DNA from: Lytechinus pictus
Lineage: Eukaryota
Reading direction: 5' to 3'
Assembly (NCBI RefSeq): GCF_037042905.1
Contig: NC_087245.1
Location: 4,528,001 to 4,592,000, forward strand
DNA length: 64,000 nucleotides
Below are positions 12,601-42,732 of this stretch, piece by piece (position 1 is the first letter of the stretch; every line of letters starts with the position of its first letter). The position numbers and the translations under genes were made by a program. The notes below the pieces were generated by a model that saw nothing but the letters and a program-made list of their open reading frames with translations, was not told the origin of the DNA and did not search any database.

Positions 12601-12780
12601 TTCTCTTTATTTCACAGTCAGACTAATAGTCCCCACACTATTTTAAGTTTATATTACTATTATTACCTAGGCTTCAAAGTAACAAGGGCACAATCACACC
12701 ATTTGCGTAGCAATGGTTAAATATGTAAGCGATGGATGTCCCAGACGCTGTAATACGCAGACCTTCCTCTGTTGCATATC

Positions 12781-13158
12781 ATAGATTACCGAAATGTGAC
12801 ATCGTCAATATTCCCTTTTTGCATTTCAGCATTATTGATACCATATTTTGGTTGAGCATGATAAAATACCTCCACAACCCAAATTCTGTAGGAATCAGTC
12901 CATGGTGCCACAAGATATGAATACATAATCACCCCATTGAAATCAATGTATTATTTGCCTGGTTCCTAAAGTTTAGAACCAGGTCAATAAACCATTGAAC
13001 TTGAACAATGGGTCATTAGGTTATATCCAACGCCCCCATGGACCAATTCCCATCAAACTTGGGTTGTAGAGGTATTTCATCATGCTCTACCAAAATATGG
13101 TATCAATAATGCTGAAATGCAAAAATGTGTTTGTGACGTTATCACATCAGTACTCTAT
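12781..13158. mobile_element. Long-TIR palindromic MITE
   Basis: TTTTTGCATTTCAGCATTATTGATACCATATTTTGG...CATGAT is inverted at ~13075-13125. Termini ATAGATTACCGA / TCAGTACTCTAT resemble the MITE at 1872. Confidence 0.75.
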
Positions 13159-13334
13159 TATATTTATATTCACAAGACAAAAATGTACCTGAGATCTTAT
13201 TTCACATTTTACCTGTGAGATATGAGTGATCTTCATTTTCTTGATATTATCTTTAAAATGAATACCGGTATCATTTTAGAGATAATATTAGAAAAGTAAA
13301 GATAAAGTTGATTGTAGAATACCGCCCATGAAAC

Positions 13335-16300
13335 CAACGTTCTCGCCAGGTTCAGTTTCACGGTTGTCGGAGCGAAGCTCCGACGTGCCGCGCAGCGGCC
13401 TCGATGCGTGCGAAGCACGCATAGGGGGGTGGGTGCGAGAGGGGGGATGTGCCCCCCTCCCGCGCGAAGCGCGGTTAGCTTTTGACATTATCCGTATCGA
13501 AGAGCTTATATTGCAGCTAAATGCATCACATTAACCACTTTGCTGCGGCGGATAAATGATTTTTTTCGGCGGCTTCGGCATTGAATTCTATCAGCTAATT
13601 ACACACAGGTCACAGCGCAATGTTGAACTGACAAACGAGCCGAGATTCTCGGCGAGTGGCGAGAGTTCGTGCCCCAACGTCTACCGAGCCTTGCCGTGGA
13701 ATCCTGACCATGTGGCCGTCTATTCGATTGCGTTGGTGGAATATTTGTCAATTATTAAAATTGTAGGCTTATTACTGTTCCATGTCTCGTAATCTGCATC
13801 AATGAAGAATTAAAAAGTTATTCCTTGTTTGTAACCTTGTCCGTATTAGATGTAGATTTATCTCTCTAGTACTAAGTTAGTAGTAGCCCCTTTCCTTGCA
13901 AACCGCACAAGAACCCTGCCGTTATCGTCAAAGACTTAGTGATAATCCTTCGATCGATCAAAAGGCGCAGCTAGCGCACAGGCGAAGGCTTCAAGATCTT
14001 TTTCATTAGCTATTATTTTGCGTCTTTCGATTCAACTTTACAGTTGGATTGGACGCAGTTAATTTATAACAAATGGAATAATTATATGTATTACGAAATC
14101 GCATTTTAATGATATCACTCGTTATTAAAAGAAAATGGGAAATTCAAGAATCTACACCTTTGGTTTTCATGTTAAAACTGAGGAAGAAAGACTGAAAGAG
14201 AGTGAGAGCAAGAGAGACACTGAAAGGTCCGAACTTGATTAAAATGAGATCAACTTGATACTCACTCTGTCATGGGTCTTTCATAATCACAAAACACGAT
14301 GCATACTCATTTATTTTATGGGAAAGACTTACTGAATCGTATTTTTTGTCAAACATCTAGGTCTAACTTTTAACAAGAATACAAATCACAATTTGAGAAA
14401 AAGTAACGACTAAATATGACCATAAATAGGTCTATGATATGACATAATCATGATCGAATACACCTCTCTTTTCCAAGTACCGCTGTTCATACTGTGTGTC
14501 CTAAAAAGGCACTGACTGACAATAAATCCCTTATTCCCAAGGGCCTCATGAGCTTGACCACAGCCAAGGATTTTCACTGCGTAATCATGATTCGGATCAT
14601 TCAATTAAGTAGGGCACGCGCCTTTGTTTACAAAACATGCCAAACATGATGCTTGTCTGCAAGTCTGCATATTCAGACTCTATTTTGCTTTGAATTTTCT
14701 CTAAATCCGCGATTACAAGTTTTCTCAGGTTCTCATCTTTGAATCGAATCATTAGCGATATGTTGATTTAGATATACAAGTAAATTCAATATACAGTTAC
14801 AGGTTATTGGTTAACAGTACAGTGCAGCCGAATTGAAGATTAAAATTAAAGCAATTGCAAGTGTGCGTTATAGAGAAAGACTAATCACCAATTGAACGTG
14901 GTTACCAACCAAGGAAAGAAGAAGTGGTCCGATTTCTCCCCACGTGGACATCGTGGCAAATCCACATTCATGGCGAGTCTGCCCTTAGTTACGATGCCGG
15001 TGGCGCATGGATGGTCAGTACCTATTCATACTTATTATCATCAACGGACCCATTTATCCCTATTTATTGACATGTTCATGATGTGATTCTATTTTGTATT
15101 TCTATTTTGTGGTAGTGCGGTATTTCTCATCGAAATCATCTTCAGGATTATATTACCGACCAAGGCAATGTATTTCATCGAACGAGCGAATTTCGAGAAA
15201 TTGCATTCTAACAACATTCCCTATTATGCGCGGGAATATGTCCTTAGAGAAGGGTAGGGGTTGCCTTCTGATTTTCCGAGTGAAAATTGGGAAGGAGGGA
15301 GAAAGAGAAAGAATTGTAAGAAAAGTAGGAAAAACAGGAGAGGTTCGGGCGGGTCGTATTATTCTGATATCTCTATAATTCACAAAATACATTACAGAAA
15401 ATCACATTGTCTTACGGCTATTGCCCCCTCCGCATTTCAAGTCAAATATCCTGGCACTCAATGCTCCTGCCCTGCCCCATTGAATTTCAATCAGAATATG
15501 GCAAAAACGGGAATTTATCTTTTTTTTCTCAGAGTGATAAAACGGCTTATTATTGATTTTGTATTTGTTGTTTTTTTAACTGCAACTTTTGAGGATTTAA
15601 TATTAACCAAGAACGACTGGTTTAATAATAGTGTCCATCTGAAAACTAGATAAAGACTCAAGCATTGTTTTTGGTAAGAGAAAAATACAACCGCGTGTGG
15701 CGCCAGAAAATGTGAAAAGTTTGAATATAAATTTTTAATTTGAAAAACTACTAGAATTTGTACCAAGCTTCTGCCCATCTCTGGTACCTTAAACACTACC
15801 GTCAGAGAGTGTTTCGTGAATAGCAACGTAGGCGCCTAATTTTCATTATAACTACAAGTATAATTTATTGTCAACGAGTAAGAACAAGTTCTTATAGCTC
15901 CTTGGTTCTAGACATGTCTTTATGCATATTCATTGGGTTGGCAGATGATGACATATCCCCACTTGTTCTTATGTATTTTATTAAGGCGGCAATTGCCCTC
16001 ACGAATACAATTTTTGAGCGAAGAGGAGAGAGGCCACTGCCGCCAAACACGAAGTCTCGTTAGAAAAAAAAGAAAAGCGGGAGAGACGGAGAGATATCCG
16101 CTCTGGGCGATATGCATGCAGCGCATGCTGCACAGTCATATGACAGTGGGCCTTTCGAGCGAGTTGCACGCACGCTAAATAGTAAGGGCACTGATCGAGC
16201 GAAAAGCCAGTGAATGGAGAGAAGACGGAATTTAGGAGGGTTCTCTGCTCGAAACCGAAGCAGACTCAGTGGCGAGGCTCAAATTTCTGACAAGTATGTC

Positions 16301-16482
16301 TTAAAAACAAAACTTTCATGATGAATCTCGTTCATTTCAAAACTTAGTAATGACAATATCTAGCGTGTTTCACGGTTGTCGGTCAGGGTTGTCGGGGACA
16401 TTCACGGTTGTCGGCCAAGGCTCACAAAACTTTCACGGTTGTCGGCGGCCGACAAAGGTGACGCGTGTTGGCGAGAACGTTG
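13335..16482. mobile_element. Non-autonomous hAT-type DNA transposon, 3.1 kb
   Basis: Perfect 14-bp TIR CAACGTTCTCGCCA / TGGCGAGAACGTTG and perfect 8-bp TSD CATGAAAC (13327-13334, 16483-16490). Subterminal TTCACGGTTGTCGG repeats. No transposase ORF recognised. Confidence 0.9.
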
Positions 16483-16553
16483 CATGAAACTAGCTACATG
16501 AAGCAATACAGCTTCGGTCTTTTCTAAATTGCATCATGTACACACTGGCAGTC

Positions 16554-18147
16554 CAGACCTGCCAACCTCTGGGAATGAAAAATTGTATTCTGTGATAAAA
16601 CAAACTGTATTCCCCCCCCCCAAAGTGTATTTTATAATAAAATGCATGGCGCACTTGCTCATCGCGGCGCTCAAGCTACATGCAAGCTAAAATGCGCACT
16701 GCTCTTGCAGATGAAAAAAAAAACATTGAAACATGTGTATATCTTACCCTGGTTTTAACAAAATGATTGAAAAAAAAACCAAGTTACCTGAAATTACATT
16801 GATCCAATAACCATATTTGTGTAAGTTTTATGAAATAGAGACATATAGAGATGATTTTTCTCAATAAATTACGATTCAGTAAAAAAAAACAACATATTTT
16901 TAAAAGAGACAAGTGGAACGCCTCTGGCAGTCTCGCCTGCATTACGCGATTTAATATAGCAGCAGTGCTAACTTTGAAAACTACTATAAAATAATCATTC
17001 ACAAAAACACCATTCATATAATGACATAATACCACGTTCATTGACCATAGATGACATTTGAACGGTGACTTAAGACTTGTCAACTACACCCATGCCACAT
17101 TTCATTCACTCTATCCATAAACTTTCAAAGTTATGATGGCAATTCAACAATTACCCCAACATGGCCTATGTTTATTGACCTTAACTGACCTTTGACCTTG
17201 GTTTTGTGACCTGAAACTCACAGGGGATGTTCAGTGATACTTGATTACTCTTATATCCCAAGTTTTATGAAATAGATCCATAAACTTCAGAGTTAGGATG
17301 GTAATTTAACAAAGACCCCCAACACGGCCAAAGTTCATTGACCTTAAATGACCATTGACCATGGTCATGTGACCTGAAACTCGCACAGAATATTCAGTGG
17401 TACTTGATTAATCTAATGTCCAAGTTTCATGAACTAGATCCATAAATTTTCTAAGTTATGAAGGCAATTCAACACATACCCCCAACTTGGCCAAAGTTCA
17501 TTGACCCTAAATGACCTTTGACCTCGGTCATGTGACCTGAAACTCAGGAAGGATGTTCACTAATACTTGATTAACCTTATGTCCAGGTTTCATGAACTAG
17601 ATCCTTACATTTTCAAAGTTATGATAGTAATTCAACAAATACCCCCAACTTGACCAAAGTTCATTGACCCTAAATGACCTTTGACCTTGGTCATGTGACC
17701 TGAAACTAGTGCAGGATGTTCACTAATACTTGATTAACCTTATGCTCAAGTTTCATGAACTAGGTCCATATACTTTTTAAGTTATGATGTCATTTAAAAA
17801 ACTTAACCTTCGGTTAAGATTTTGAAAATAATTCTCCCAACATGGTCTAAGTTCATTGACCCTAAATGACCTTTGACCTTAGTCATGTGACCTGAAACTC
17901 AGGCAGGATGTTCAGTAATACTTGATTAACCTTATGTCCAAGTTTCATGAACTAGGTCCATATACTTTCTAAGTTATGATGTCATTTCAAAAACTTAACC
18001 TTAGGTTAAGATTTGATGTTGACGCCGCCGTCGGAAAAGCGGCGCCTATAGTCTCGCTCTGCTATGCAGGCGAGACAAAAACGTACTGCCGTATTTTGGT
18101 TGCAAAGCGTACTAAATACGCCCAAAACGTACTGGTTGGCAGGTCTG
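16554..18147. mobile_element. hAT-like MITE (TIR CAGACCTGCCAACC) interrupted by HINE copy 2
   Basis: 14-bp TIR at 16554 and 18134-18147. The flanks TGGCAGTC / TGGCACGT are only partly duplicated. Confidence 0.7.
16908..18080 (-). mobile_element. Helentron/HINE-like element, copy 2
   Basis: subTIRs GTCTCGCCTGCAT (16930-16942) and ATGCAGGCGAGAC (18064-18076). Same internal ~120-bp repeats as copy 1. Confidence 0.72.
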
Positions 18148-18215
18148 TGGCACGTGGCATACCTCTATCTTCTCTTTAAGTGATTACAACTTTTGCCAAT
18201 TCATAACTTTCTTAA

Positions 18216-18799
18216 AGGAGAATGAAACCCTTGAAACCAGCTGAATCCATATCAAAGAGAAAAATCAAAGAAACATATTGTTGAAAGTTTGAGGAAGATT
18301 GAATGAATAATAAGAAAGTTATGAGCATTTGAATATTGAGATCACTAATGCCTTGTAGATCCTCCCATTGGCAATGCGACCAAGATCTGTGATGTCACAC
18401 ACGTACAACTCCCTCATTACTTTAGTACTTATTTCACTTATATTCTCACTTTTATAGAGTCTATCCCAAGGTGAGGTGTTCTCTTTATGAGAGGACAAGT
18501 ACAGAGGTTTCACAACATTATATCATTGATGAATCGTTTGTCATATGATTAGAATGAGCAAAAAGAGATGTTTTGGGGTATATTTTCAGTGTCCAAAAGG
18601 GGAGAGTTGTTCATCTGTGACATAATAGACCTTGGTCGCATTGCCAATGGGATGATCTCCATAGCATTAGTGATCTCGACATTCAAATGCTGATAACTCT
18701 TCTATTGCTAGTTCTATTTTACTCAAACTTTTGTTGATCTTATTCTTTGATTTTTCTGCTTTCACAAAAGCTTACTTGCTCCAAGAGTTTCATTCTCCT
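18216..18799. mobile_element. Kolobok-like MITE (TTAA TSD)
   Basis: TTAA|AGGAGAATGAAAC ... GTTTCATTCTCCT|TTAA, with long internal inverted arms. Confidence 0.8.
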
Positions 18800-18803
18800 T
18801 TAA

Positions 18804-19545
18804 CCCTTTAGCACCTGAACCGCCCGAGACCGCCCTTCCTATTTCACACTGAACCGCCTTTAACCGCCCGTACGTTTTCTTTGCGCTATAGTATCTCTTG
18901 TCTATGATTTACCGTGGTAATATTGCGTGTGCATACCGCATAGGTTGGCTGCTACATAGATCTGCATAGAAAAGTGTATGCTCCTATTGAGTATAATAGA
19001 GAAAAACCGATTGACATGCATCGGTGTGTAGCAAGTTCCAGACTGTTGCGCAGTCGATCTCAGCAAAGATGGCTGCGTCCATGTATCGGAAAACCACTTA
19101 CTTCGCCGAAGAAGCTCGGGCGTTGCTATATGTTCATCAAAACGTTGGATATCACACAGAGTGACATCTAGATGTGAGTTGGAATTAATTTTTGACATAT
19201 TTGATCCAAGATTTGGTGAAAACTTTAGTATTCTGTCAGTGATACTTTACATTTTTTTGAAGGCGTGGGACTGGGGCGGCTGAAACCCGAACTTTTGTTT
19301 TTTTTCTTCTCGCTCTGCAAACAATTGTCAAAGGTCAATATTCGTACATCTGATTGAACTTTGCCATGTACCATTCTATTCAACAGGTCCTATGCTACAA
19401 AATAAATATAACTTGTAATGAACAAAAGTAAATTTATAAAAAACTATTTCAATTTGTTTGGAACAATGCCTACTTATTACCAGTTTTATTGTTTCCTCCA
19501 GTGAGTAATTGCCATTATGCATAGGAATCTGTAGGTGCTATAGGG
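18804..19545. mobile_element. piggyBac-like non-autonomous element
   Basis: TTAA|CCCTTTAGCACCT ... AGGTGCTATAGGG|TTAA. Shares its left TTAA with the Kolobok-like MITE. Confidence 0.78.
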
Positions 19546-19814
19546 TTAAGGACTAGAGTGTGATACAATTTGTTCCAACTTGAATAACGATTTTTATTTC
19601 TTTTTCATATCTTTACCCACATTTTGCTGCACTCAACCCAGGTGAGGTGAATGGGTACCAGGCAGGATTACTTCCTTCAATGCACTAAGCCATTTAGCAG
19701 CTGCAGCTAAATCCGGGGTAATAAATAGGTCACCATTGAATTGCCAACTTCATGAAGATAATCAATGCCTTTATGCTTGATATCAGACCTTAAAATGACC
19801 TGTGTTACCTGTTA

Positions 19815-20196
19815 GACACCGTTCTCGCTACTTCCTAAAAGAAAGGTTGAAGCGATCTTCCAAACCAGTTCATAAAACCACCTCACGATCTCGTTTTCAA
19901 GATTGCTTTGCCTCGTTAAACTGGTTTTAGTGTGAGGACACAACCGTTCTTTGGAAAGTGATCTTCGCACATTTTGAGCGCTATTCCACACACTGTGTGT
20001 AGAATGCCTACGCTGCGGTATCGAATTTCGCGCAAAACATGTCACCCACTGAGAGCGTTCCCATAGCAACAAAATTGCTTTACATGAAGTGATTTTGAAA
20101 ACAACTTTCGTGTGATCAAGTGGGAACGCTATCAAAGCAATCTTCCAAACTGGTTTTCAGTAAACTAGTTTTAAAAAGCGTAATGAGAACGGTGTC
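19815..20196. mobile_element. PIF/Harbinger-like MITE (TTA TSD)
   Basis: TTA|GACACCGTTCTC ... GAGAACGGTGTC|TTA. Confidence 0.8.
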
Positions 20197-20199
20197 TTA

Positions 20200-21822
20200 G
20201 ACCCCTGTTACATCTGAGAGATTCCCTACCTCGGGCCGGCCCGGGGCCTACCTAGGGTCGGAAAGAAATCAGATGTAAACATCCCAAACCTACCTCGGGC
20301 CACCTTTTAGCGAACCTACCTGAGACAACATCCAGAGGTAGTCTCGGGTAGGTATCGGGCCGGCCCCGGTCCACCGATTTGTAGATGTAAACGCACACAA
20401 GCTTTCGAACCTATCTCGGTCCGTTCGCCAGCTGTCAAATTACGTCATAGCGCGCGCTATCCCCTCCCCAGCCCCGTCGTTCTTCTAATGTTTTGCGGCA
20501 TGCGAGATGTGAATTGTGATTGATAAAGTCTTTGATTTGAGTGGAAAGAAGCATGGACCTATTACGAATGGACATTCAACAAGAGCATTTTATGACCACC
20601 ACCTGTTTCCAGCTGTCAAAATCGCTGTCTAACCCTTAACTTTCTCTTTACGCGGTTTTTACGACGACCGCCCAGGGCAATTGTTTACACAAGCTCCTTT
20701 CGGTCATTGATCGTCACCGATCGATCACTGGCCCTCTTTCGACCAAAGTCGGTCATGTTTTAGCCCCGATTACCAATAGGGAAAGTCTCTACATTACCTA
20801 GAATGCAATGCGCAATTCATATCCGGTTTTTCAGTACATTATTTTAGGCTGTCTATAATGTGCGATTGTCGTCTGACCATAAAAAAAATTCCGTTAAATT
20901 TCATCAATCCTGTGGAATTTTGTGCCCAAATGAAAATCAACTTCTGACCGAAGGTAAGCGCTACTATCAACATCAATACTGTCCGAAAAAGATTCATTTT
21001 GAACGTTTTCCCGCACATTTCTCCGTCGAATTTCAACTGCTTTTTTGCCTTAGATATACGGATCTGCAAGGTGATGAAAATGCATTTCATGTGCGGTTGT
21101 TTGCGATGTACGTAAAAAATATGTTTATGCACGCCTGTTTTCTTGTTTCTGCTATCTTTTTCATAGCGCTAACGTTCGCTGCAGAGCGCTAACGTTCGCT
21201 GCTGTGCGTTACTTTTGATAAAGTGAACGAACAACATCGCAATGGGTAGGAGCAGCATACAATTGATTTCCGCTGTCCATCAGTGAGAGCGTGTTTTACG
21301 ACCGGCTTGATGGGCGTCAGCTGACAGCGCTCTGTTTATAAAAGGATTAGCGGTGACAGTCTTCGGCCCAAAGGAGGGGATTCGTCCATGAAAGAAGGAA
21401 GCATTTTAAACTTATCCTTTTCAAGTCGATCATATCTTCAACGACTGCTGGGATCATCAGCATTCTTCCAGAATCTCGGGTAAAGGTAAAGGTAAAGAGT
21501 CGTTTCGACTCTCTCTGGAAATGATCGGCACATGTCCCACCCTGTCATTTCTGTGTAGCAGCCGACGAGTGTAACGATATGTAAACAACTTCAATTAGCG
21601 CGCGCAAATTATTCAGAGCCTAGATCGAGAGCGCCCTTTGGTGTCAGCAATCGGATACCACTCGAAACCGTACCGATAGGGGAGGGAACGAACACTGTGA
21701 TGTAAACAGACCACATTTCGGACTCGGTCCGTTCGCGAAGCTAATCCACCAATAATCCAGTCAAGGTTGCAAGTGGACTCGGTCGGGTCACGGGTAGGAA
21801 ACTTTCAGATGTAAAAGGGGTC
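20200..21822. mobile_element. PIF/Harbinger-like non-autonomous element, 1.6 kb (TTA TSD)
   Basis: TTA|GACCCCTGTTACATCTGA ... TCAGATGTAAAAGGGGTC|TTA, with internal GATGTAAAC subterminal motifs. Confidence 0.82.
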
Positions 21823-21825
21823 TTA

Positions 21826-22880
21826 TTCTCACCTTTCCCTTTACCTATCCTACATACATGTAGTAAGGTCACTAATCTAGGTCACCTCAGACTCAAAACA
21901 ATTTCCATAGTCAGTCCAGGTCCTAACCATAAGCAATATACATTGTAGATCAAGGCCATGTTTGCTTACAAAGAGAACGTTCTCATCATACTTTCTAAAA
22001 CTTGTTTACTAGAAACCAGTTCAGGAAACCAGTTTGGAAGATAAACACACCATGATATTATCAAGTTAGCGGAGGGGTCGAGGTGCAGGTTGCAAAAGCA
22101 TGGTCTAAGAATATGTTGGAGAGTAAGAAATTAGAATATACATGACCAAAATAATAATATAAAACTGAAATGCAAATCAGCACTGGGAACAATGGAAAAG
22201 ACGATTTGGAATGATCACAAGCGAGGAAAGAAGCCCTGGGTGGTTACTTCCATTGATGAGCAGATACCATGCATTATTAATGCTTGATATTAGACCTTAA
22301 AACGACCTGTGTACCTATTATTTTCACCTTGCCCTAAGTTACTTATCCTACATGTAGTAAGGTCACTAATCTAGGTCACCTCAGACTCAATCAATTTTCC
22401 ATGGTCCATAGTCCGTAACCATAAGCAATATACATGTAGATCAAGGCTATGTTTGCTTACATTGAGATAAACCAGTTGAGGTCTATTAGCTTATAACAAT
22501 ATGGTACTATATACTCATATCACACTCTGGCGCTGAATTGTTGAGATACCGAAGATGAAAATCAACACTGGGAACTATGGAAAAGACAATTTGGAATGAT
22601 CACAAGCGAGGAAAGAAGCCCTGGGGGCCACTTCCATTGAGGAGAGGATACCATGCATTATTAATGCTTGATATCAGACCTTAGAACGACCTGTGTACCT
22701 ATTATTTTCACCTTGCCCTGAGTTACTTATCCTACATACATGTAGTAAGGTCACTAATCTACATGTAGGTCGCCTCAGACTTGAAACAATTTTCCATGGT
22801 CCATGATCCCTGACCATATTAAAAGCAATATAGATCAAGGCTATGTTTCCCTACATTGAGAAAAAAACCAGTTGACGTCA
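21826..22880. repeat. Tandem ~384-bp repeat (3 copies; the first starts at ~19773 and is split by two transposons)
   Basis: ATGCTTGATAT(C/T)AGACCTTA at 19773, 22280 and 22664. GTAGTAAGGTCACTAATCTA occurs three times. Confidence 0.85.
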
Positions 22881-23468
22881 CTTAGCCTACAACAATATGG
22901 GCCTACTTCAGTCAATCATGAGATGTGCACACTGTGCAATCTCGATGAAACTTCAAGCAGTCCATTAAAAAAAAATGTCAAAAATCTTATACAAATTATC
23001 TTTTATTCAACTTTACAACTTCAAATGTTTACATCATCAAGAAGAATTATTCTCTCAAATAAGCTAATTTTAAAATTTCTGCTTTCGAAGACCAATTACT
23101 ATTTTGGCTACAGTATATACAGAGAACCTTCCCTGGTGACTTATGGTTGGTTTGGAGGTGGCTGGTCACATATTAAATTATTCTAAACAAGTAAAAAAAA
23201 TTTACCTTGTGTTTTTTTATGCTCTGAATTTCTTTAGCATTCAAATTCAATCAAGTACTTCCATGGGTTATTCATCAATTTCGCCAAGTTTAATATCATT
23301 TTAAAGCTTTTTTTTCATATACAGATGAAGATATAAATACAGTGAGGAGAAAGAATAGATTGCATCATAAATGTTTAGCCCCAATTTCCATATCAGATGT
23401 CTTGCCATTTTGTCCATTCCCATTTACATGTAAATGGTTTCATATTTTCAACAAATGGAAGCAGATTA

Positions 23469-23611
23469 GGGCTCCATAACACAAAGGTTTGCAATCAATC
23501 GCTAAAAGCCAAAGACTGATCAAGATCATCGTTGCATGCGCACTCTGTTTGAAATACTGACCTAGAACCAATCAGTGGGGTTCTTTTGCAAACCTTTGTG
23601 TTACGGAGCCC
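23469..23611. mobile_element. Small palindromic MITE
   Basis: GGGCTCCATAACACAAAGGTTTGCAA is inverted as TTGCAAACCTTTGTGTTACGGAGCCC. Confidence 0.75.
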
Positions 23612-24402
23612 AGGTGAGTCATTATACATGTCAATGATCCGGGGGGGGGGGGGGGGGGGGGGCCACTTCCATTGACAAGTGGATACCATGCGCAACCATG
23701 GGGTCTCGAAAAGCACCCTAAACATGTATTTTCCATTTTCTGAAAATGCACCCCTTAACAAGTATTGGCGTGTGAAACTCTACCCTTAACAAGTATTGGA
23801 AACAAAACGATACTCTTGGCAAGTTCCCTGAATTGCATGACGAAAACATCCCATTAGAAACAGCACACCAGATTTTCACACTGTTACTGAAGATTTAATC
23901 CTGTAATCCTAAGACGCTTGTCCTTAATACAATTACTACTAATACACCTCTTCTATTGTGTTTCTGGTAATACTATAATCCCCTCCAAGTATTGTACTAA
24001 GCCGGACAGTTATATGCAAATTAACTTGTGATGTGGGGAGGGGGGGCTGTGCATACAATCATTCCCTGTATGTTATCAATAAGTTTTCCTAATTGGTGAA
24101 ATAAAATGAACTACATAATTTGTGGGGAGGATGTAATAGATTTGTATTCCTTCTATTTATCATCATTATCAACCAATGGAGCTATTTACACGATTTACCC
24201 CTGATAGTTTACCTCTCCTCCCTCTTCTATATTTAGTTCATACATTTTATATTTTAAATGCATTCTGCATTTTATATCTTCAAGAAGAATATATTTTCCT
24301 TAAATACTTTATAAAGTGAATATGAAGATAACAAACATCTGAATATAAGCAAACTTCTTTTAGTTTCATATTTAACAGTAAACATGCACTATGTATATTC
24401 AT

Positions 24403-24551
24403 CAGGGGCCGCGGAAGTGGGGGGACTATAGTGGGACTATAGCCCCCCCCCCCCAAAAAAAAAAAAAAAAAAAAAACGTAAAAAAATGATCATAGGATTG
24501 TGGATTTTTTTTGCATGGTCCCCCCACTTTGAAACCGTTCCGCACCCCCTG
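24403..24551. mobile_element. Small MITE (CAGGGG...CCCCTG ends)
   Basis: CAGGGGCCGCGGAAGTGGGGGGAC vs GTCCCCCCACTTTGAAACCGTTCCGCACCCCCTG, with TTCAT on both flanks. Confidence 0.55.
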
Positions 24552-24985
24552 TTCATAATAATAAGTTATAGCATTTATGAGGCCCGGTATGAGGCACAAA
24601 TTAACTTTGCCTATTCAATGGTGCAATAATTATATATGCAAGTATAGTTATAATTCACGTATATTATTCATACATGTAGTTATAATAAGCTGTGGTCCTA
24701 TACTAAAATAAATGTAAACAAAACTAACTGAAATGGCATTTAGCACCCCCTCACCCTTCCAGTTCAGAAGTGAAGGTCATAAAATTAAATTATTCACCAG
24801 AGATGTGTATAATACTTTGATCAACAAATGTGTATCCACACAAGGACGAGCAGATACAAAGCTTGCCGTTTCGAGAGGGCCTTTATAGAGTACAAGGAAT
24901 CATAGCTGCAAATTCAGACTTTTTAACTTGGAAGGGTTTCCACAGCAGACTACACTTAGACCACTATTATCATCTACCATCTTAA

Positions 24986-26488
24986 AGGACAAGTCTAATA
25001 CAACAAAATAGTTTATATGAATAAAACGAGAAAAATTCAACTTGCATTGAAAATCGCATTGAAATCAGATGTAAAATAAGAAAGTTATAACATAACAAAA
25101 CACTTGGGCCTATGTGCACATCCTGCATAGTCGATAGGCAAATTAGAGGACTGATGACATTATCCAGTCACTATTTCTTTGTATTTCGTTGTATTAAATA
25201 CAAAATATTCGAAATATTCTCCCAATTGTTATGTTAACCAAAATTTCATATTCTTCTTACTTAACATCCAATTTTATTGAAATTTTCATGGTTACATTTG
25301 TATTTATGATTTATTAAAATCATCATTTTTTCTGGGGTGGTCATGACCTTTAAGTCAGTTGAATAGAAACCGGTTTTAAAGTTAAAGGACAAGTTCATCT
25401 CAATAAAAAGTTGATTTGAATAAAAACAGAAAAATCTAACAAGCACAATACTGAAAATATCATCAAAATCGGATGTGAAAATAGGAAAGTTATGACATTT
25501 TAAAGTTTCGCTTCGATTTTACAAAATAGTTATATGAACATCCCGGTCATTATGCAAATGAGGGAACTGATGACATCACTCACTCACTATTTCTTTTGTA
25601 TTTTGCTATATGAAATGTGAATTTTCTTCTCATTGTCCTGTGAAACAAAGTGTTTTTTGCCTTGAACATGTGGAATTACCATTGTTTAACAGTTATGATT
25701 CAGTAAAGTTGGTCCTTATTGTCAAATCTGTTAAAATCTAAATATTGTATAATTCATACAATAAAAATACAAAAGAAAGAGTGAGTGAGGGACATCATCG
25801 ATTCTCTCATTTGCTTGTGACTAAATTGTGCATATAACTGTTTTGTAAAAAATAAGCGAAACTTTAAAATGTCATAACTTTCTTACTTTTCATCCGATTT
25901 GGATGAAATTTTCAGCATTATGCTTCTCTGATTTTTCTCTATTGAATAAAATCCGGGGGGGGGGGGGGGGGGCGGCACTCAGTATATAATGCATAGTGGG
26001 TATGTGCCGCGAAGGGGACCCCAATTTTTACACTAAAATTTCCGTTCCAAGGCAAAGCATTTTCGTCTTCTTGAGAAAAAAAAGAAATCCGATCCAAAGC
26101 ATATCATTTTGTTCTTATCGTGAAAAAAGAAAGAAATCCGCTCCAAAGCTTCGCAAATTTTCCGTTACGCCGTTCCGGTCGCATTGATCTGCTACAATGA
26201 GCCGCGATTTTGGTGAAAAGCGGCCGCGGAGCGCTGCCCGACTATCGCCGCTTCGCTAGCGCACCCGGCGCCTGTGCCGCCGGGCAAGCTGCATGCACGT
26301 ATGCCCGTTCCATAGGGATGCATAAACATTTGTAGTTCCGAAACCTGTTCCGAGGAAACCTCCTTTTACAATTTGCCCGCTCCAAAGCCCCCGTTTTTTG
26401 TCTCGCCAGCGGCACATCCCTACTACTTTTTTGGTCGAGTGCCCCCCCCCCCGGATTAATAAACATGTTTCTGAGGTGGACTTGACCT
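24986..26488. mobile_element. Two adjacent Kolobok-like MITEs (24986-25349 and 25386-26488); the second contains a CCGGG-ended MITE (25953-26454)
   Basis: TTAA|AGGACAAGT ... (A/T)TGACCT|TTAA termini occur twice, with homologous bodies. The nested element has CCGG(G)n...CACTC / GAGTG(C)nGG termini. Confidence 0.72.
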
Positions 26489-26769
26489 TTAATGGGAATG
26501 CTCGAAACATGCAGTCTTGGAATTGATCATTTAAAGAGTAGAACAGGCTGAATATATGATTTTGACTGAAGAATAATCAGATAAACATCACAAAACATTG
26601 AAAATTCAATCATGCTACATGTACATCTAGTTGTTAAAATGCTAGGCCCAACAGTAAGAAATTAAAGTTAGGCCTTGTAAATGTATTATTTTCCAAACTC
26701 GGGCGGGAGTCGATCGAGTCTTGCGCAATAATCGCGATCGCGAGCATTCGTGCTCCATCGCATCTAGGG

Positions 26770-26947
26770 GTGTGTATTTGAGTTTTGTCAGACGTGTATC
26801 AATCAGGTATGCTTATTTACGTCTGGGACCGACCTTTATTAACGTCACTATCCGAAAGACATCATCAGGGCTCGAACCTCGAACCTCTGCATCAATTTGT
26901 AACTTCCCCACAGCTTGGATTACAGGCGCACGCCACAACGCCCAGTT
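26770..26947 (-). mobile_element. SINE with a 7SL/Alu-domain-like 5' head
   Basis: Minus strand reads ACTGGGCGTTGTGGCGTGCGCCTGTAATCCAAGCT (27/35 identical by eye to the 7SL 5' end GCCGGGCGCGGTGGCGCGTGCCTGTAGTCCCAGCT). This is followed by a B-box-like GGTTCGAG, GTCTTTCGGAT..GACGTTAA and a CA-rich tail. Confidence 0.7.
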
Positions 26948-27362
26948 GCATATTAGTATTGGATTCAGACCCTACATTCCATTTTTTTAAGATAGCTAAA
27001 CCCAATTAGCCGATCCATAAATAGATGTACAATATTTATATATCGATATATATATTTATAATTAATTTGAGGATAAAATATATTTAAAGTTAATATAAGA
27101 AGAAAATCTTTACAAAATTTTGAATAAGTTTGTTATAGAGGCTACAGATTCGACGAGAGGGATTTCCCTGAGAGCAGTATTGAGGTAAAGGAAGTGTGCT
27201 AATTGGATAACAAAAAGCTAGGAATTCCATGAAAAGAGTCTTTACAAAGACCGTCTTTTCATGTCGCCGATTTGCTATGATGTGTTGAACGGTTGCGGGT
27301 GGTACGTGTGGGTGCGGGGTGCTCTGGACGGGGTTCTCGGAGGAAAAAAGGCAATACAGAAT

Positions 27363-27394
<32 letters not shown>

Positions 27395-28299
27395 GAATAT
27401 CAAGGGGAAAAAACACCAAGGAGATTCTCCGCGTTGAATTTGAAAGCAAATACAACAAGAAATATTTTTACAACATGCTTAAGTTTTTAAGAATCGAGTA
27501 GGGCCCGCTCTTCCAACAATCTAATCTTGCTATATTAGCTAAAAAGATAAACTTTTTACTTTGCTTTATTTTCAACAAACACAGATGAACTTTCATGATC
27601 GCAAATTGTAATTGGCTGTCGAACCTCTTTTATCTGGTGTTGACTATAATGACCGAACTTCCCGGGAAAATGTTGATGTATGAATAAACACTAGCATTGT
27701 ATTTGTATTTCAATGTTCTCTCTAAGCACCGTTTGAGCATTTATATTGGAATGGGTACATAGTATATCAAAGATCAAACATATCCCGAAAATTCAGCACT
27801 TTCCATGCCCCATGTTTCCATGTTTCAAATCTGAAAGATTTGTTAAAGCTTCTTAAAATGATCCCTGCGTGTTGGCATGAAAAATTATATTTTCAGCCCC
27901 TTATGCCTAAGGGTTTGTTACAAATCAATTTTACAGAGACATAGGTCTAAAATTCTAAAATGTAAATGGGCGAAGCCAAAATGAAGAAAACAATAAAACA
28001 TTATCAAATCAACGTACAAGAAACCCACACAAACACGAAACAAAAAAGTGTGCATGCCATAGGGTAAAACAAAAAGGAAAGCATAAACAAAAAGAAAGTG
28101 TGCAGAAAAAAAAGAATAGTGAAAACTTAGATTTTATAGCACGTACTTGGCGACATAAACGGAATACTGCATTGACAAATACTTTATATACGTATATAGG
28201 GCCTACATATATTTATTTTTACTACGTGGTAGATTTTTTTTTTGGGGGGTGGGCCTTAAAACTCCCCAGAGCCGACCCCCCCCCCCCCCCCCCCCCGAA

Positions 28300-31200
28300 A
28301 CAACGCCTGCATGTTGGCATGCAATGCTTGGAAGCATATTCATTTTTTTTATTGTGAGTTTGCTTTTTGTCATTATTATTTTTTTTTTTTGGGGGGGGGT
28401 GGAATATCCCATCATATCATCCAAGTTTAAAAGTTCACATCATTTACCGGATAGCAAACATGTTCTCGTAATTGCTGTTTTTATTTATCATATTCATTTA
28501 TTCGGTTTAAAACAAATAATCGTTTCTGCTAGTGGAGTGTAAAAAAATAAAATGTGGAATCTCCGTTGATTAATTCACTTTCAAATACCACAGATTCAGT
28601 TCATTTTTTCCAAATTATTTTTCTTAAAACCTCCATGAGAACCGAATCTATCAACTTGCGGGTCTGCGTAGAATAGACTACAACTCGGGTTTCACTCACC
28701 AAATTCAGCCTCTCGCCTGCTAACCGACTCTAGCAACTTGCGGGTATGCGTAGAATTGACTACAACTCGGGTCTAACCCACCAAATTCAGCCTCTCGTCT
28801 GCTGGGCTTATATGGGCTAGCGCTTGTATGTCAGCGTTTTAAAAACATGACAGGTTTTGGTCCGAAAAACCTTTCCTTTTATCCAAGGATGACAAATTCC
28901 TATCGCAATTTTCCCCCGAATTTTCCCCATGCAAGAGAAACTATGATTACCCTTGTTTTAAATTGAAATACATTGCCGACAAGCATTCATATTCAATTCT
29001 TTTTTATTGTGAGTTTGCTTTTTTTTGGGGGGGAGGGTATCCTATATCCGACGACTATTTACTTCAAAGTATTTTGATTGACATTTTCCTGTTCAGTTTC
29101 ATGCTAATTGTATATAATAGTTACTTTTGTTCACATGATTTTCCAGAATATTTCCTCGGAAATGTTGCTGTTTTTATTTATTTCATTCATTTATTTGGTT
29201 TAAAATAAATCATTGTTTAAATTGATTCTTCCGCTAGTGGAGTGCAAAAAAAAATCTGGAACCTCCGTTGATTAGTTCACTTGAAAATACCCAAGATTCA
29301 GTTCATTGTTTTCAAGTTATTTTTCTTAAAACCTCCATGAGAACCGACTCTAGCAACTCGCGAGTCTGCGTAGAATAGACTACAACTCGGGTCTAACTCA
29401 CCAAATTCAGCCTCTCGTCTGCTGAGCTTATCATGATAGGTGACTGTGTGGGATAGCGCTTGTATGTCAGCGTTTTAAAAACACATGATAGGTTATGGTC
29501 CTAAAACCTTTCTTTTATCCAAAGATGTTAAATTCAGCTATCACAATTCTTCCCATGCAAGTGAAACTTTGATTAACCTTGTTTTAAATTGATATAAATT
29601 GCCGACAAGCATTCATATTCATTTTTTTATTGTGAGTATGCTTCTTTTTTTTTTTGGGGGGGGGGGGTATAAGAATATCCTATATCCGACATGTTCAAGA
29701 CTATACGTGCTTTTTACTGTAAAATAATTTGATTGACATTCTCCTGTTCAGTTTCTTGCTAATTGTAATTGTTACTTTTGTTCACATGATTTACCAGAAT
29801 ACTTTCCTCGGAAATGTTGCTGTTTTTATCCATGCATTTATTTGGTTTGAAATAAATCCTTGTTTAAATTGTTTCCTCCGCTAGTGGAGTGTAAAAAATA
29901 AACTCTGGAATCTCAGGTGATTATAGTTCATTTTAAAAATACCCAAAGATTCAGTTCATTGATTTCAAGTTATTTTTCTTAAAACCTCCATGAGAACCGA
30001 CTCTAGCAACTTGCGGGTCTGCATAGAATAGACTAAAACTCGGGTTTAACACACCAAATTCAGCCTCTCGTCTGCTAGGCTTATCATGATAGGTGACTGT
30101 GTTGGCTACTCGGGTTTAACACACCAAATTCAGCCTCTCGTCTGCTAGGCTCATATAGCGCTTGTATACTATGTCAGCGTTTTAAAAACACATGACAGGT
30201 TTTGGTCCTAAAACCTGTCCTTTTATCCAAAGATGTTAATTCAGCTATCGCAATTTTTCCCATGGAAGTGAAACTATGATTACCCTTGTTTCAAATTGAA
30301 ATACATTGCCGACAAGCATTCATATTCATTTCTTTTTTATTGTGAGTTTGCTTTTTTTATTGGGGGGGGGGGTAAGAATATCCTATATTCGACATGTCCA
30401 AGACTACGTACTATTTACTTTAAAGTATTTTGATTGACATTTTCCTATTCGGTTTCTTGCTAATTGTAATTGTTACTTTTGTTCACATGATTTACCAGAA
30501 AATTTCCTCGGAAATGTTGCTGTTTTTATTTATTTATTTCATTTATTTGGTTTGAAATAAATCCTTGTTTAAATTGTTTCTTCCGCTAGAAAAGTGTAAA
30601 AAATAAAATCTGGAATCTCCGGTGATAAGTTCATTTTGAAATACCCAAAGATTCAGTTCATTGTTTTCAAGTTATTTTTCTTAAAACCTCCATGAGAACC
30701 GACTCTAGCAACTTGCGGGTCTGCATAGAATAGACTAAAACTCGGGTTTAACACACCAAATTCAGCCTCTCGTCTGCTAGGCTTATCATGATAGGTGACT
30801 GTGTTGGCTACTCGGGTTTAACACACCAAATTCAGCCTCTCGTCTGCTAGGCTCATATAGCGCTTGTACTATGTCAGCGTTTTAAAAACACATGACAGGT
30901 TTTGGTCCTAAAACCTGTCCTTTTATCCAAAGATGTTAATTCAGCTATCGCAATTTTTCCCATGGAAGTGAAACTATGATTACCCTTGTTTCAAATTGAA
31001 ATACATTGCCGACAAGCATTCATATTCATTTCTTTTTTATTGTGAGTTTGCTTTTTTTATTGGGGGGGGGGGGTAAGAATATCCTATATTCGACATGTCC
31101 AAGACTACGTTCTATTACTTTAAAGTAATTTGATTGAAATTTTCCTGTTCAGTTTCATGCTAATTGTATTTGTTACTTTTGTTCACATGATTTACCAGAA

Positions 31201-33770
31201 TATTTCCTCGGAAATGTTGCTGTTTTGATCCATGCATTTATTTGGTTTGAAATAAATCCTTGTTTAAATTGTTTCTTCCGCTAGAAAAGTGTTAAAAATA
31301 AAACTGGAATCTCCGGTGATAAGTTCACTTTGAAATACCCAAAGATTCAGTTCATTGTTTTCAAGTTATTCTTCTTAAAACCTCCATGAGAACCGACTCT
31401 AGCAACTTGCGGGTCTGCGTAGAATAGACTAAAACTCGGGTCTTACTCACCAAATTCAGCCTCTCATCTGCTAGGCTTATCATGATAGGTGACTGTGTAG
31501 GCTACTCGGGTTTAACACACCAAATTCATCCTCTCGTCTGCTAGGCTTATCATGATAGGCGACTGCGTGGACTAGCGACAGGTTTTGGTCCAAAAACCTT
31601 TCCTTTTATCCAAAGATGTTAAATTCATATCGCAATGTTTCCCATGCAAGTGAAACTATATTAACCTTGTTTTAAATTGAAATACATTGCCGACAAGCAT
31701 CCATATTCAATTATTTTTTTGTTAATTGCTTTTTTTTTTTGGGGGGGGGTAAGGATATCCTATATCCGACATGTTCAAGACTACGTTCTATTACTTTAAA
31801 GTAATTTGATTGAAATTTTCCTGTTCAGTTTCATGCTAATTGTATTTGTTACTTTTGTTCACATGATTTACCAGAATATTTCCTCGGAAATGTTGCTGTT
31901 TTTATCCATGCATTTATTTGGTTTTAAATAAATCCTTGTTTAAATTGTTTCGTCCGCTAGAAAAGTGTTAAAAATAAAACTGGAATCTCCGGTGATAAGT
32001 TTACTTTGAAATACCCAAAGATTCAGTTCATTGTTTTCAAGTTATTCTTCTTAAAACCTCCATGAGAACCGACTCTAGCAACTTGCGGGTCTGCGTAGAA
32101 TAGACTAAAACTCGGGTCTAACTCACGAAATTCAGCCTCTCATCTGCTAGGCTTATCATGATAGGTGACTGTGTAGGCTACTCGGGTTTAACACACCAAA
32201 TTCAGCCTCTCGTCTGCTAGGCTTATCATGATAGGCGACTGCGTGGACTAGCGACAGGTTTTGGTCCAAAAACCTTTCCTTTTATCCAAAGATGTTAAAT
32301 TCATATCGCAATGTTTCCCATGCAAGTGAAACTATATTAACCTTGTTTTAAATTGAAATACATTGCCGACAAGCATCCATATTCAATTATTTTTTTATTA
32401 ATTGCTTCTTTTTTTTTTGGGGGGGGGGGGGGTAAGGATATCCTATATCCGACATGTTCAAGACTACGTTCTATTACTTAAAAGTAATTTGATTGAAATT
32501 TTCTTGTTCAGATTCATGCTAATTGTATTTGTTACTTTTGTTCACATGATTTACCAGAATATTTCCTCGGAAATGTTGCTGTTTTTATTCATGCATTTAT
32601 TTGGTTTGAAATAAATCCTTGTTTAAATTGTTTCTTCCGCTAGAAAAGTGTAAAAAATAAAATCTGGAATCTCCGGTGATGAGTTCATTTTGAAATACCC
32701 AAAGATTCAGTTCATTGTTTTCAAGTTATTTTTCTTAAAACCTCCATGAGAACCGACTCTAGCAACTTGCGGGTCTGCATAGAATAGACTAAAACTCGGG
32801 TTTAACACACCAAATTCAGCCTCTCGTCTGCTAGGCTTATCATGATAGGTGACTGTGTTGGCTACTCGGGTTTAACACACCAAATTCAGCCTCTCGTCTG
32901 CTAGGCTCATATAGCGCTTGTACTATGTCAGCGTTTTAAAAACACATGACAGGTTTTGGTCCTAAAACCTGTCCTTTTATCCAAAGATGTTAATTCAGCT
33001 ATCGCAATTTTTCCCATGGAAGTGAAACTATGATTACCCTTGTTTCAAATTGAAATACATTGCCGACAAGCATTCATATTCATTTCTTTTTTATTGTGAG
33101 TTTGCTTTTTTTATTGGGGGGGGGGGGGGTAAGAATATCCTATATTCGACATGTCCAAGACTATACGTTCTATTACTTTAAAGTAATTTGATTGAAATTT
33201 TCCTGTTCAGTTTCATGCTAATTGTATTTGTTACTTTTGTTCACATGATTTACCAGAATATTTCCTCGGAAATGTTGCTGTTTTTATCCATGCATTTATT
33301 TGGTTTGAAATAAATCCTTGTTTAAATTGTTTCTTCCGCTAGAAAAGTGTTAAAAATAAAACTGGAATCTCCGGTGATAAGTTCACTTTGAAATACCCAA
33401 AGATTCAGTTCATTGTTTTCAAGTTATTCTTCTTAAAACCTCCATGAGAACCGACTCTAGCAACTTGCGGGTCTGCGTAGAATAGACTAAAACTCGGGTC
33501 TAACTCACCAAATTCAACCTCTCGTCTGCTAGGCTTATCATGATAGGTGACGGTGTTGGCTACTCGGGTTTAACACACCAAATTCAGCCTCTCGTCTGCT
33601 AGGCTTATCATGATAGGTGACTGTGTTGGCTACTCGGGTTTAACCATGGACCTATTTCGTAATAGGTAATAGCTCCATGGTTTAACACACCAAATTCAGC
33701 CTCTCATCTGCTGGGCTTATTATGATAGGTGACTGTGTGGTCTACTCGGGTAGTAACAAACCAAATTCAA
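28300..33770. repeat. Tandem array of ~650-700-bp units, about 8 copies
   Basis: AAAACCTCCATGAGAACCGA recurs at ~28627, 29327, 29981, 30683, 31377, 32053, 32737 and 33435. Internal ~60-bp subrepeats CACCAAATTCAGCCTCTCGTCTGCT. Confidence 0.95.
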
Positions 33771-33774
33771 GTTC

Positions 33775-36700
33775 TTGTCACATACATCTTAGATAAATGA
33801 ACAAATTAACTATCAAGAACGTTTTAAGATTGTTTCGACGGAACTGTCAGGCACGTTTAAAAAAAATTGAAGTGCCTACAAATATGAAAGTACATTTGAT
33901 GTACCTTTCTCTATGAACTCCCGTTCACCAAAAAAATATATAAAACAGGCATTGCTCTGATAACGACAAAGAAAAATAAAACAGATAGAAGTCACAAACA
34001 TCTTAGATAAATGAACAAACTATCAGGAACTTTTTAAAGTTGTTTCGAGTTGCTCACAATTAAAAATATATTATATATATATATATATATACCCTTCGTT
34101 ACCACGGTCATGAACGCCGTTGTCCTAAAAGAATAGTAAATTACGCAAGAGAAATAAAACAAAATGGAAGTCACAAACATCTTCGATTATCGACAAACTT
34201 TCATGAACGTTTAAAAAATTGAAGTGCTTACAAATATAAAAGTAAATTTTATGTACCTTTCTTTATGAACTCCCATCCTCCAAAAGGAAATATAATAGAT
34301 GCAAGGAAAATGAAATAAAATAAAAGTCGCAAACATCTCAGATTCATGAACGAACTATCAGGAACGTTTTGAAATTATTTTTAGCTGCTCATAAGTAAAA
34401 ATATATTTTATATACATTTTGTTAAAGAAACTCCCGTTCTCCAAAAAGAAATATAAAAGACAGGGATGGAAAATAAAACAGAATAGAATTCACAAACATC
34501 TTAGATTAATGTACGACCTTATAACGTTTTAAAATTATTTTGAGGTGCTCACAAGTAAAAATGCATTTTATACTCTCGTTATGAATTCCCGTTCTCCAAG
34601 ATGAAATAATTATAAAAGACGTATATTATTCGGATAACGGCTGAAATAAAACAGGAAAGAAGTGAAGAACATCTTAAATAAATGAACAAACTATCAGGAA
34701 CGTTTCAAAATTATTTCGAGTTGCTCACATTTTAAATATACCTTTCGTTTTGAACGCCGTTCTCCTAAACGAATAGTAAATTACGCAAGAGAAATAAAAC
34801 AAAATAGAAGTCACAAACACCCGGCATAAACATCTTCGATTAATGAACAAACTTTCAGGAACGTTTTAAAAAAAGAATTGAAGTGCTTATAAATACAAAA
34901 GTAAATTTTATGTACCTTTCTTTATGAACTTCCGTTCTCCGAAAGGAAATATAAAAGACGCAATTAAAATAAAACAGAATAAAAGTCGCAAACATCTCAG
35001 ATTCATCAACGAACTATCAGGAACGTTTTAAAACTGTTTTGAGCTGCTTACAAGTAAAAATATAATTTATGTTATTTACATTTCGTTAAAAAAACTCCCG
35101 TTCTCCTAAAACAAAGATAAGGGACGGAAGGAAAATAAACAGAATAGAAGTCACAAACATCTTAGATAAATGAACAAACTATTAAGAACGTTTTAAATTT
35201 ATTTTGAGGTGCTAACAAGTAAAAATGCATTTTATATATCTCTCGTTATGAACTCCCGTTCTCCAAAATGAAATATAAAAGACGTATATTATTCGGATAA
35301 CGGCTGAAATAAAACAGGAAAGAAGTCACAAACATCTTAAATAAATGAACAAACTATCAGGAACGTTTCAAAATTATTTCGAGTTGCTCACATTTTAAAT
35401 ATACCTTTCGTTTTGAACGCCGTTCTCCTAAACGAATAGTAAATTACGCAAGAGAAATAAAACAAAATAGAAGTCACAAACACCCGGCATAAACATCTTC
35501 GATTAATGAACAAACTTTCAGGAACGTTTTAAAAAAAGAATTGAAGTGCTTATAAATACACAAGTAAATTTTATGTACCTTTCTTTATGAACTTCCGTTC
35601 TCCGAAAGGAAATATAAAAGACGCAATTAAAATAAAACAGAATAAAAGTCGCAAACATCTCAGATTCATCAACGAACTATCAGGAACGTTTTAAAACTGT
35701 TTTGAGCTGCTTACAAGTAAAAATATAATTTATGTTATTTACATTTCGTTAAAAAAAATCCCATTCTCCTAAAACAAAGATAAGGGACGGAAGGAAAATA
35801 AACAGAATAGAAGTCACAAACATCTTAGATAAATGAACAAACTATTAAGAACGTTTTAAATTTATTTTGAGGTGCTAACAAGTAAAAATGCATTTTATAT
35901 ATCTCTCGTTATGAACTCCCGTTCTCCAAAATGAAATATAAAAGACGTATATTATTCGGATAACGGCTGAAATAAAACAGGAAAGAAGTGAAGAACATCT
36001 TAAATAAATGAACAAACTATCAGGAACGTTTCAAAATTATTTCGAGTTGCTCACATTTTAAATATACCTTTCGTTTTGAACGCCGTTCTCCTAAACGAAT
36101 AGTAAATTACGCAAGAGAAATAAAACAAAATAGAAGTCACAAACACCCGGCATAAACATCTTCGATTAATGAACAAACTTTCAGGAACGTTTTAAAAAAA
36201 GAATTGAAGTGCTTATAAATACAAAAGTAAATTTTATGTACCTTTCTTTATGAACTTCCGTTCTCCGAAAGGAAATATAAAAGACGCAATTAAAATAAAA
36301 CAGAATAAAAGTCGCAAACATCTCAGATTCATCAACGAACTATCAGGAACGTTTTAAAACTGTTTTGAGCTGCTTACAAGTAAAAATATAATTTATGTTA
36401 TTTACATTTCGTTAAAAAAACTCCCGTTCTCCTAAAACAAAGATAAGGGACGGAAGGAAAATAAACAGAATAGAAGTCACAAACATCTTAGATAAATGAA
36501 CAAACTATTAAGAACGTTTTAAATTTATTTTGAGGTGCTAACAAGTAAAAATGCATTTTATATATCTCTCGTTATGAACTCCCGTTCTCCAAAATGAAAT
36601 ATAAAAGACGTATATTATTCGGATAACGGCTGAAATAAAACAGGAAAGAAGTCACAAACATCTTAAATAAATGAACAAACTATCAGGAACGTTTCAAAAT

Positions 36701-37850
36701 TATTTCGAGTTGCTCACATTTTAAATATACCTTTCGTTTTGAACGCCGTTCTCCTAAACGAATAGTAAATTACGCAAGAGAAATAAAACAAAATAGAAGT
36801 CACAAACACCCGGCATAAACATCTTCGATTAATAAACAAACTTTCAGGAACGTTTTAAAAAAAAGAAGTGAAGTGCTTATAAATACAAAAGAAAATGTTA
36901 TGTACATTTCTTTACGAACTTCCGTTCTCCAAAGGAAATATAAAAGACGCAATGAAAATCAAAAAGGATAAAAGTCGCAAACATCTCAGATTCATCAACT
37001 AAGTATCAGGAACGTTTTAAAACTGTTTTGAGCTGCTTACAAGTAAAAATATGAATTATGTTATTTTACATTTCGTTAAAAAAAACTCCCGTTCTTCAAA
37101 AACAAAGTAAGAGACGGAAGGAAAATAAACAGAATAGAAGTCACAAACATCTTAGATATATGAACAAACTATAAGAAACGTTTTAAAATTGTTTTGAGTT
37201 GTTCACAATTTAAAATATATTTTATGTACCTTCCGTTATGAACGCCGTTCTCCTATAAAAGAATAATTAATTACGCAAGAAAATAAAACAAAATAGAAGT
37301 CACAAACATCTTAGAACTATCAGGACGTCTTAAGTGCTTACAAGAATAAAAGTAAATTCTATTTACCTTTCGTTATGAACTCCCGTTCTAAAAAATACGT
37401 GTAAAAGATGCATTATTCACAAACATCTAAGATTAATGATCGAGCTATCAGGAACGTTTTAAGATTGTTTTGTGTTGGCTAACCGGTAAGATATATATAT
37501 ATTATATATATATATATATATACATGAGTTGGCTAACATGTAAAATATACTCATACAACTCTTGTCCCCTCCTCCCCCCCCCAAAAAAAAAAATATATAT
37601 ATATATCAATGAATCGTTAATACTCTGACAGCAGTGGAAATGAATAAAACAGAAGAAAAGTCACAAACATGCATCTTAGATTAATAATCGAACTATCAGG
37701 AGCGTCTTAAACCTGTTTTGAGGTGCTAAGCTATTAAAGTAAATATAAATGTAATATACTTTTCATTTTGAAATCCCGTTCTCCAAAAATAAATATAAAA
37801 TACGCATTATTCTGACGACAGAAGAATAAAAAACAGAATCATAAGTCATT
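33775..37850. repeat. ~165-bp AT-rich satellite with a 663-bp 4-mer higher-order repeat
   Basis: Monomer marker GTCACAAACATCTTAGA...GAACAAACTATCAGGAACGTTT. Diagnostic CCGGCAT at 34821, 35484, 36147 and 36810 (period exactly 663). Confidence 0.95.
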
Positions 37851-41097: not shown

Positions 41098-41137
41098 TTA
41101 ATCTTTTATAGGGTGGAGGTGCTGCAGCTCAGTGGAT

Positions 41138-42690: not shown

Positions 42691-42732
42691 TATTCAACAC
42701 AGTCAAATATGATATCAGATTATTTTACTCAC

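Follow-up and report, generated by a model that had tools for sequence, protein, structure and literature searches.

A 2006 report is said to describe an 'Alu element' in amphioxus. That element is not counted in the SINE1 lineage lists given in the accessible text of Kojima 2020 (PMC7245038) and Kosushkin et al. 2026 (PMC13023118), where 7SL-derived SINEs are known only from Euarchontoglires (supraprimates), hagfish and the shrew mole. All 7SL-derived SINEs are held to have arisen by the same central deletion, which has been proposed as the enabling event in the available part of the latter source (PMC13023118). Alu, FLAM, B1 and the shrew-mole Urop are accordingly described there as monomers derived wholly from 7SL with a central deletion of about 183 nt, and they carry a poly(A) tail, are driven by L1 and are flanked by target-site duplications (PMC13023118). 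The hagfish (Eptatretus burgeri) element SINE1-1_EBu has an independent 7SL head on an older tRNA-type SINE; it retains 96 nt of the 5′ part of 7SL together with the 3′ part and the 7SL B box, and it ends in an RTE-derived, simple-repeat tail that is not poly(A), with target-site duplications of about 17 bp and, by implication, a non-L1 partner (PMC7245038).

The element described here is of SINE type, is about 177 nt long, and runs on the minus strand from 26946 to about 26770 of the 64-kb stretch of DNA that was analysed (the window). We consider it probable that it is one copy of a chimeric SINE family in which a 7SL 5′ head has replaced the front of a tRNA-type SINE in a Lytechinus-like host. 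As is usual of SINEs it is short (<1 kb), interspersed and non-tandem, being single in the window and having its body in unrelated flanks elsewhere. An earlier note on this DNA had placed the 7SL-like letters on the minus strand and had the element leave 7SL soon afterwards, and both points hold: the 7SL-like stretch begins at 26946, and the likeness ends after about 45-47 nt. The head proper (26902..26946, minus strand, 45 nt) resembles the 5′ Alu domain of 7SL as modelled in Rfam Metazoa_SRP, with a closing helix, two hairpins and the UGU turn. It is followed by a linker (26879..26901, minus), delimited on sequence, which holds the head junction and a first B-box-like copy and whose origin could not be matched to the relatives described below. 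The B-box-like motif that the earlier note had pointed out is indeed present, as two tandem copies at 26885-26879 and 26878-26868, the second of which (26868..26878, minus) is a B box of tRNA type. The body comprises a 5′ part (26822..26860, minus), which has a 3-nt insertion relative to three metagenomic relatives, and a 3′ part with a short CA tail (26770..26821, minus), the presumed LINE-recognition end, which those relatives share down to the same end point. The CA tail announced by the earlier note is present, but only as a remnant of three CA units, whereas the relatives carry longer CA or CCAA runs there.

Among the four Rfam matches listed for 26400-27200, Metazoa_SRP was the best, with a score of 32 bits and an E-value of 2e-6. 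This score falls under the Metazoa_SRP gathering score of 70 bits, and at gathering thresholds Rfam listed nothing in the window. The convincing part of the alignment covers the first ~45-47 nt; the 3′ end of the model is forced on with low posterior values, and the alignment offers no credible 3′ part of 7SL anywhere in the element. In nt 1-45, 12 of the 14 Alu-domain base pairs are canonical, a count that leans favourable, the structure having been aligned to this very sequence; at least 12 pairs were reached in 3 of 2000 dinucleotide shuffles (mean 6.6). The two failing pairs adjoin the first loop, where pairing is often absent. The three Alu loop-loop pairs can also be formed in the head, one of them as G-U, with positions numbered after the human Alu structure. 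Folded alone, the head has a minimum-energy structure of two hairpins without the closing helix, and folding of the whole element against shuffles gave a z of 0.14, with a minimum-energy fold other than the Alu fold. Given the best match to Metazoa_SRP and the 12 retained pairs, the 5′ end is 7SL-derived in the sense used for SINE1, and the earlier claim of a match to the 5′ end of the 7SL Alu domain is upheld beyond chance, with the fold kept. The label 'Alu-like' that accompanied it fits the 5′ ~45 nt only and not the element as a whole: in both position and sequence, B box and body are those of a tRNA-type SINE module.

Evidence for that module comes from metagenomes. A 19-base motif of the body, used as seed against metagenome contigs, gave seven matches, whereas prokaryotic genomes and viral contigs gave none. 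Four of the seven (L002, L004, L005, L007) were dropped as relatives, their match being limited to the seed. In the other three (L001, L003, L006) body and CA tail, about 90 nt, recur at 85-90% identity to the window; they align to 26860-26770 over 83-91 nt with BLAST E-values of 1e-20 to 3e-28, and, with the seed counted, 71, 76 and 76 of 84 columns are identical to the window. Among themselves the three copies (L001:481-586, L003:431-592, L006:169-372) share the ~90-nt body and tail at 85-93% identity and bear three different heads. All stop at one common point in CA- or CCAA-type repeats, where L001 ends with its contig and L006 has CCAA repeats; in L006, 9 nt are also duplicated internally. 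None of the three has flanks related to those of another or to the window. Body and tail thus form a mobile module that occurs behind several heads. No target-site duplication was found for L003 or L006. The module was not found under any family name in the supplements searched.

The heads of the three relatives show no similarity to the window head, and their 5′ parts gave no SRP match in Rfam at E<=5. Going by their motifs, these heads appear tRNA-like: a B-box motif begins exactly 18 nt ahead of the body in each, as the second motif of the window does, and L003 also has a hairpin about its B box and, at 443-452, a motif resembling an A box. ARAGORN predicted no tRNA in any of the three, nor did Rfam. 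Because the 18-nt offset is that of the relatives, the B box of the window belongs by position to an old tRNA-type head, and it would be a remnant of the tRNA head of the parent element. The ~23-nt linker showed no significant likeness to the heads of the relatives, 333, 85 and 60 of 500 shuffles scoring as high for L001, L003 and L006, respectively; a 10-nt linker match to L006 was likewise discarded as not significant.

The body carries a second recognisable trait. Comparison by eye with the rows for AmnSINE1, EbuSINE1/2, Pan_1-3 and the Nin SINEs in two supplements shows that its opening ~35 nt correspond to the first Deu/Nin block, and the exact 11-base start is common to the body and AmnSINE1. 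The second Deu/Nin block and its 3′ motif are not recognisable in the body, which thus lacks a full central Deu or Nin domain. The Deu/Nin resemblance proposed in the earlier note is therefore real, but it is short, taking in only the first ~35 nt of the domain. Such domains are often used in part, according to the available text of PMC5786205. The element is not classed here as a Deu-SINE. With the Deu/Nin-domain SINEs (AmnSINE1, EbuSINE1/2, Nin and Snail SINEs) it has in common those opening ~35 nt of the central domain. For these SINEs an exchange of heads (5S rRNA on a tRNA head) is on record, as are CR1/L2 partners; unlike in the urchin element, the heads recorded for them in the accessible parts of the sources are tRNA or 5S and never 7SL. 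SINE2-3_SP of Strongylocentrotus was likened to the element as a Deu/Nin-domain SINE by description only.

Set beside the described 7SL-derived systems, the urchin element agrees with SINE1-1_EBu in having an independent 7SL head on an older tRNA-type SINE, a simple-repeat tail and, by implication, a partner other than L1. It differs from SINE1-1_EBu in keeping only ~45 nt of 7SL and a tRNA-type B box, in its Deu/Nin-like body block, and in that no target-site duplication was found. With Alu, FLAM, B1 and Urop it shares the 7SL 5′ Alu domain at the start of a short Pol III-type element, as far as these are described in the accessible text of PMC13023118. In contrast to those monomers its 7SL likeness ends at 45 nt, and linker, B box and shared body follow after nt ~46 in place of 5′ and 3′ 7SL parts joined by a central deletion. 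With no such joined parts, it is not an Alu-type monomer. Nor does it have the poly(A) tail associated with L1 mobilisation of Alu, B1 and Urop, ending instead in a CA/CCAA-type tail. A possible precedent for a hybrid head is the left unit of types II and III of the tree-shrew Tu, for which the available part of PMC13023118 gives a tRNA-derived or dual 7SL/tRNA origin; Tu, compared here by description only, is mammalian and multimeric and has full 7SL-derived monomers, unlike the urchin element. The boundaries of the head equal those of SA46 and AY46, the minimal 46-nt Alu constructs of Moldovan et al. (PMC11760393), but these are engineered and need an external promoter since they are without a B box, whereas the urchin element would use the tRNA B box. 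SINEBase assigns a head at >=60% identity to tRNA, 5S or 7SL over >=60 nt (available text of PMC3531059); measured against the Rfam consensus, the 7SL-like stretch of ~45-47 nt is shorter than this.

These comparisons suggest a course of events. The parent would have been a tRNA-type SINE with a tRNA head, a B box, a short Deu/Nin-like block and a CA-tailed 3′ end. The front of its head would have been lost and the first ~45 nt of 7SL gained in its place, probably through template switching or recombination as the RNA was reverse-transcribed. The resulting Pol III promoter would be a hybrid, with an A box from the new head and a B box from the old one, from which transcription is predicted. 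The 7SL A box occupies nt 6-15 (PMC7245038), and the B box lies ~50 nt downstream of this position in the head; the A box was placed by its 7SL position and the B-box motif at 26878 by positional homology to the three relatives. The 5′ end of the RNA would fold as the Alu 5′ domain and, by analogy with human Alu, should bind SRP9/14, which may then deliver the RNA to ribosomes engaged in LINE protein synthesis. In human cells the 46-nt 5′ domain binds SRP9/14 and suffices for Alu jumping, nt 1-46 giving 86% (7SL) or 73% (AluY) of full Alu activity as against 12% for nt 1-20 and 7% for the 3′ domain; the 46-nt fragment is unable to spread further because it lacks a B box (Moldovan et al., accessible text of PMC11760393). 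A LINE would recognise the 3′ end, most probably one from the CR1/L2 group and not L1, since both a poly(A) tail and a target-site duplication are absent; CR1/L2 LINEs are partners of known sea-urchin SINEs in the available text of PMC3747384. New copies would be inserted through target-primed reverse transcription. No partner LINE was found within the window.

The role given to SRP9/14 in this scheme may be questioned without touching the origin of the element. In a simpler mechanism the 7SL piece would be a replacement A-box promoter and nothing more, with SRP9/14 binding irrelevant to mobility, which we regard as possible though rather doubtful. Capture at the ribosome, which poly(A) Alu uses, would be dispensable for an element whose 3′ end is matched to a LINE. 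Body and tail also spread behind several other heads, and a young head would keep its fold by mere inheritance from 7SL. The borrowed piece is, however, the whole 45-46-nt domain and not just the first ~20 nt that bear the A box, and the hagfish SINE1, with a LINE-matched tail of its own, likewise retains the Alu fold (PMC7245038).

That the element is one copy of a chimeric family has in turn to be weighed against a single accident, in which template switching linked a 5′ piece of 7SL RNA to a tRNA-type SINE on one occasion and the product was never amplified. No second copy was found in the 64-kb window, either by blastn or with a profile of the body (next match E 7.5), so that the window holds one 7SL-headed copy, and none of the three body-sharing relatives has a 7SL head, all of them carrying other heads. 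Chimeras of small RNAs of such a kind are known (PMC7245038). No target-site duplication was seen at the window element, the best flank repeat being 6 nt with one mismatch. A one-off retrocopy is nonetheless improbable, as the distance from A box to B box is a workable one and the head ends where the functional 5′ domain ends. A search of sequencing runs with 26000-27340 listed 24 runs, 20 of them with a small share (<=0.17 of 138 words) and none on record as an RNA holder; this segment also contains a MITE-like repeat, so the matches are no evidence on the element.

The resemblance of the head to 7SL might also be fortuitous, if an ordinary tRNA-derived SINE had a drifted head that looks like 7SL because both are GC-rich A-box sequences. 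A similar GC-rich run opens some tRNA-type SINE heads (the Lsa_3 row of the comparison), the B box is of tRNA type, and the SRP score lies under the cut-off. In Rfam, no tRNA or 5S match was found around the element at E up to 10, which is a weak test of this explanation because the tRNA-like head of L003 escapes Rfam as well. Against chance stands first the extent of the match, which goes beyond the A box to span the 7SL-specific turn and the second hairpin. The match remains significant in a search of the full 64 kb with the complete set of 4227 Rfam families (E 1.6e-4), and of the three closing pairs, two have both bases changed from the Rfam consensus and still pair. The dissimilarity of the three heads of the relatives to the window head speaks in the same direction, and we hold a chance likeness to be very improbable.

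The chimeric element lies within a recognisable host gene. The open frame at 43845-44087 (minus) corresponds to kynureninase of Lytechinus variegatus at 94% identity, which suggests that the host is a Lytechinus species or a close echinoid and bears out the 'echinoderm-like' lineage that had been proposed for this DNA. By tblastn of the protein P0001 on the window, the kynureninase gene occupies 2175-44156 on the minus strand, where six exons cover residues 6-292 of P0001 at 86-100% identity. The element sits in sense orientation to the gene inside an intron of ~31.7 kb (11028..42731, minus), which is bounded by the exons at 42854-42732 and 11027-10944, those for residues 106-146 and 147-174. 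Contamination by vertebrate Alu or 7SL DNA, or an assembly artefact, is hardly credible even though the head is similar to the 5′ ends of 7SL and Alu in vertebrates (Rfam consensus, mir-1268 match), as the element lies inside an echinoid gene intron, its head is joined to a non-Alu body that occurs in marine contigs, and its paired positions differ from the consensus.

The introns of the kynureninase gene are very long and filled with repeats, and the rest of the gene lies beyond the left end of the window. Nested MITE-like repeats adjoin the SINE in its intron, occupying 25382-26492: an element with long inverted arms (25413-25953) has had its right end seemingly pushed to ~26492 by a second MITE-like element, whose inverted ends lie at 25950-26010 and 26409-26457, and a diverged further copy of the first is found at ~24982-25353. 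Tandem arrays are present at 4449-9352, within a kynureninase intron (61-nt unit, ~4.9 kb, ~97% identity), and at 28433-33769 and 33842-37836 (units of ~690 nt and ~665 nt), and a palindromic array of ~56-nt units at 57187-59468. Between 49853 and 52504 a retroelement fragment is duplicated as a large inverted repeat (975 nt, 96%); its frames are reverse-transcriptase-like and GIY-YIG-like (Pfam GIY-YIG E 0.0038, under the cut-off), and it is presumably Penelope-like. Broken frames at 46615-48130 look LINE-endonuclease-like by eye and gave no match in Pfam. Strong hairpins at 55097-55213, 54713-54782 and 41357-41480 score under the cut-offs of miRNA-precursor models and are probably palindromic repeats.

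No 7SL-derived SINE in an echinoderm was reported in the literature searched, in which coverage of subscription papers and Repbase Reports is thin, nor was an invertebrate element joining a 7SL 5′ head to the back half of a tRNA-type SINE described in the literature examined. We see a modest chance that the 7SL-headed family is already deposited in a catalogue under some name, and a lower one that it is annotated there as 7SL-derived. On balance we lean slightly towards the view that this SINE family is the first with a 7SL head in an invertebrate and that 7SL heads arose here independently for a fourth time, by a new route in which a tRNA-type SINE captured only the 45-nt domain that binds SRP9/14. 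If so, the use of the 5′ 45 nt alone, with a borrowed B box, would break the central-deletion rule as put forward in the available text of PMC13023118, and the element would match the minimal Alu domain defined by experiment (accessible text of PMC11760393). The range of the 7SL head type would then take in invertebrates, in a lineage to which laboratory sea urchins belong. If the proposed origin is right, this lineage would hold a natural experiment in which the same body carries either a tRNA head or a 7SL head, and it would test whether ribosome targeting mediated by SRP9/14 boosts the mobility of SINEs with non-L1 LINEs. It would thereby become testable whether the Alu trick of binding SRP9/14 and targeting ribosomes is a general one or special to L1.
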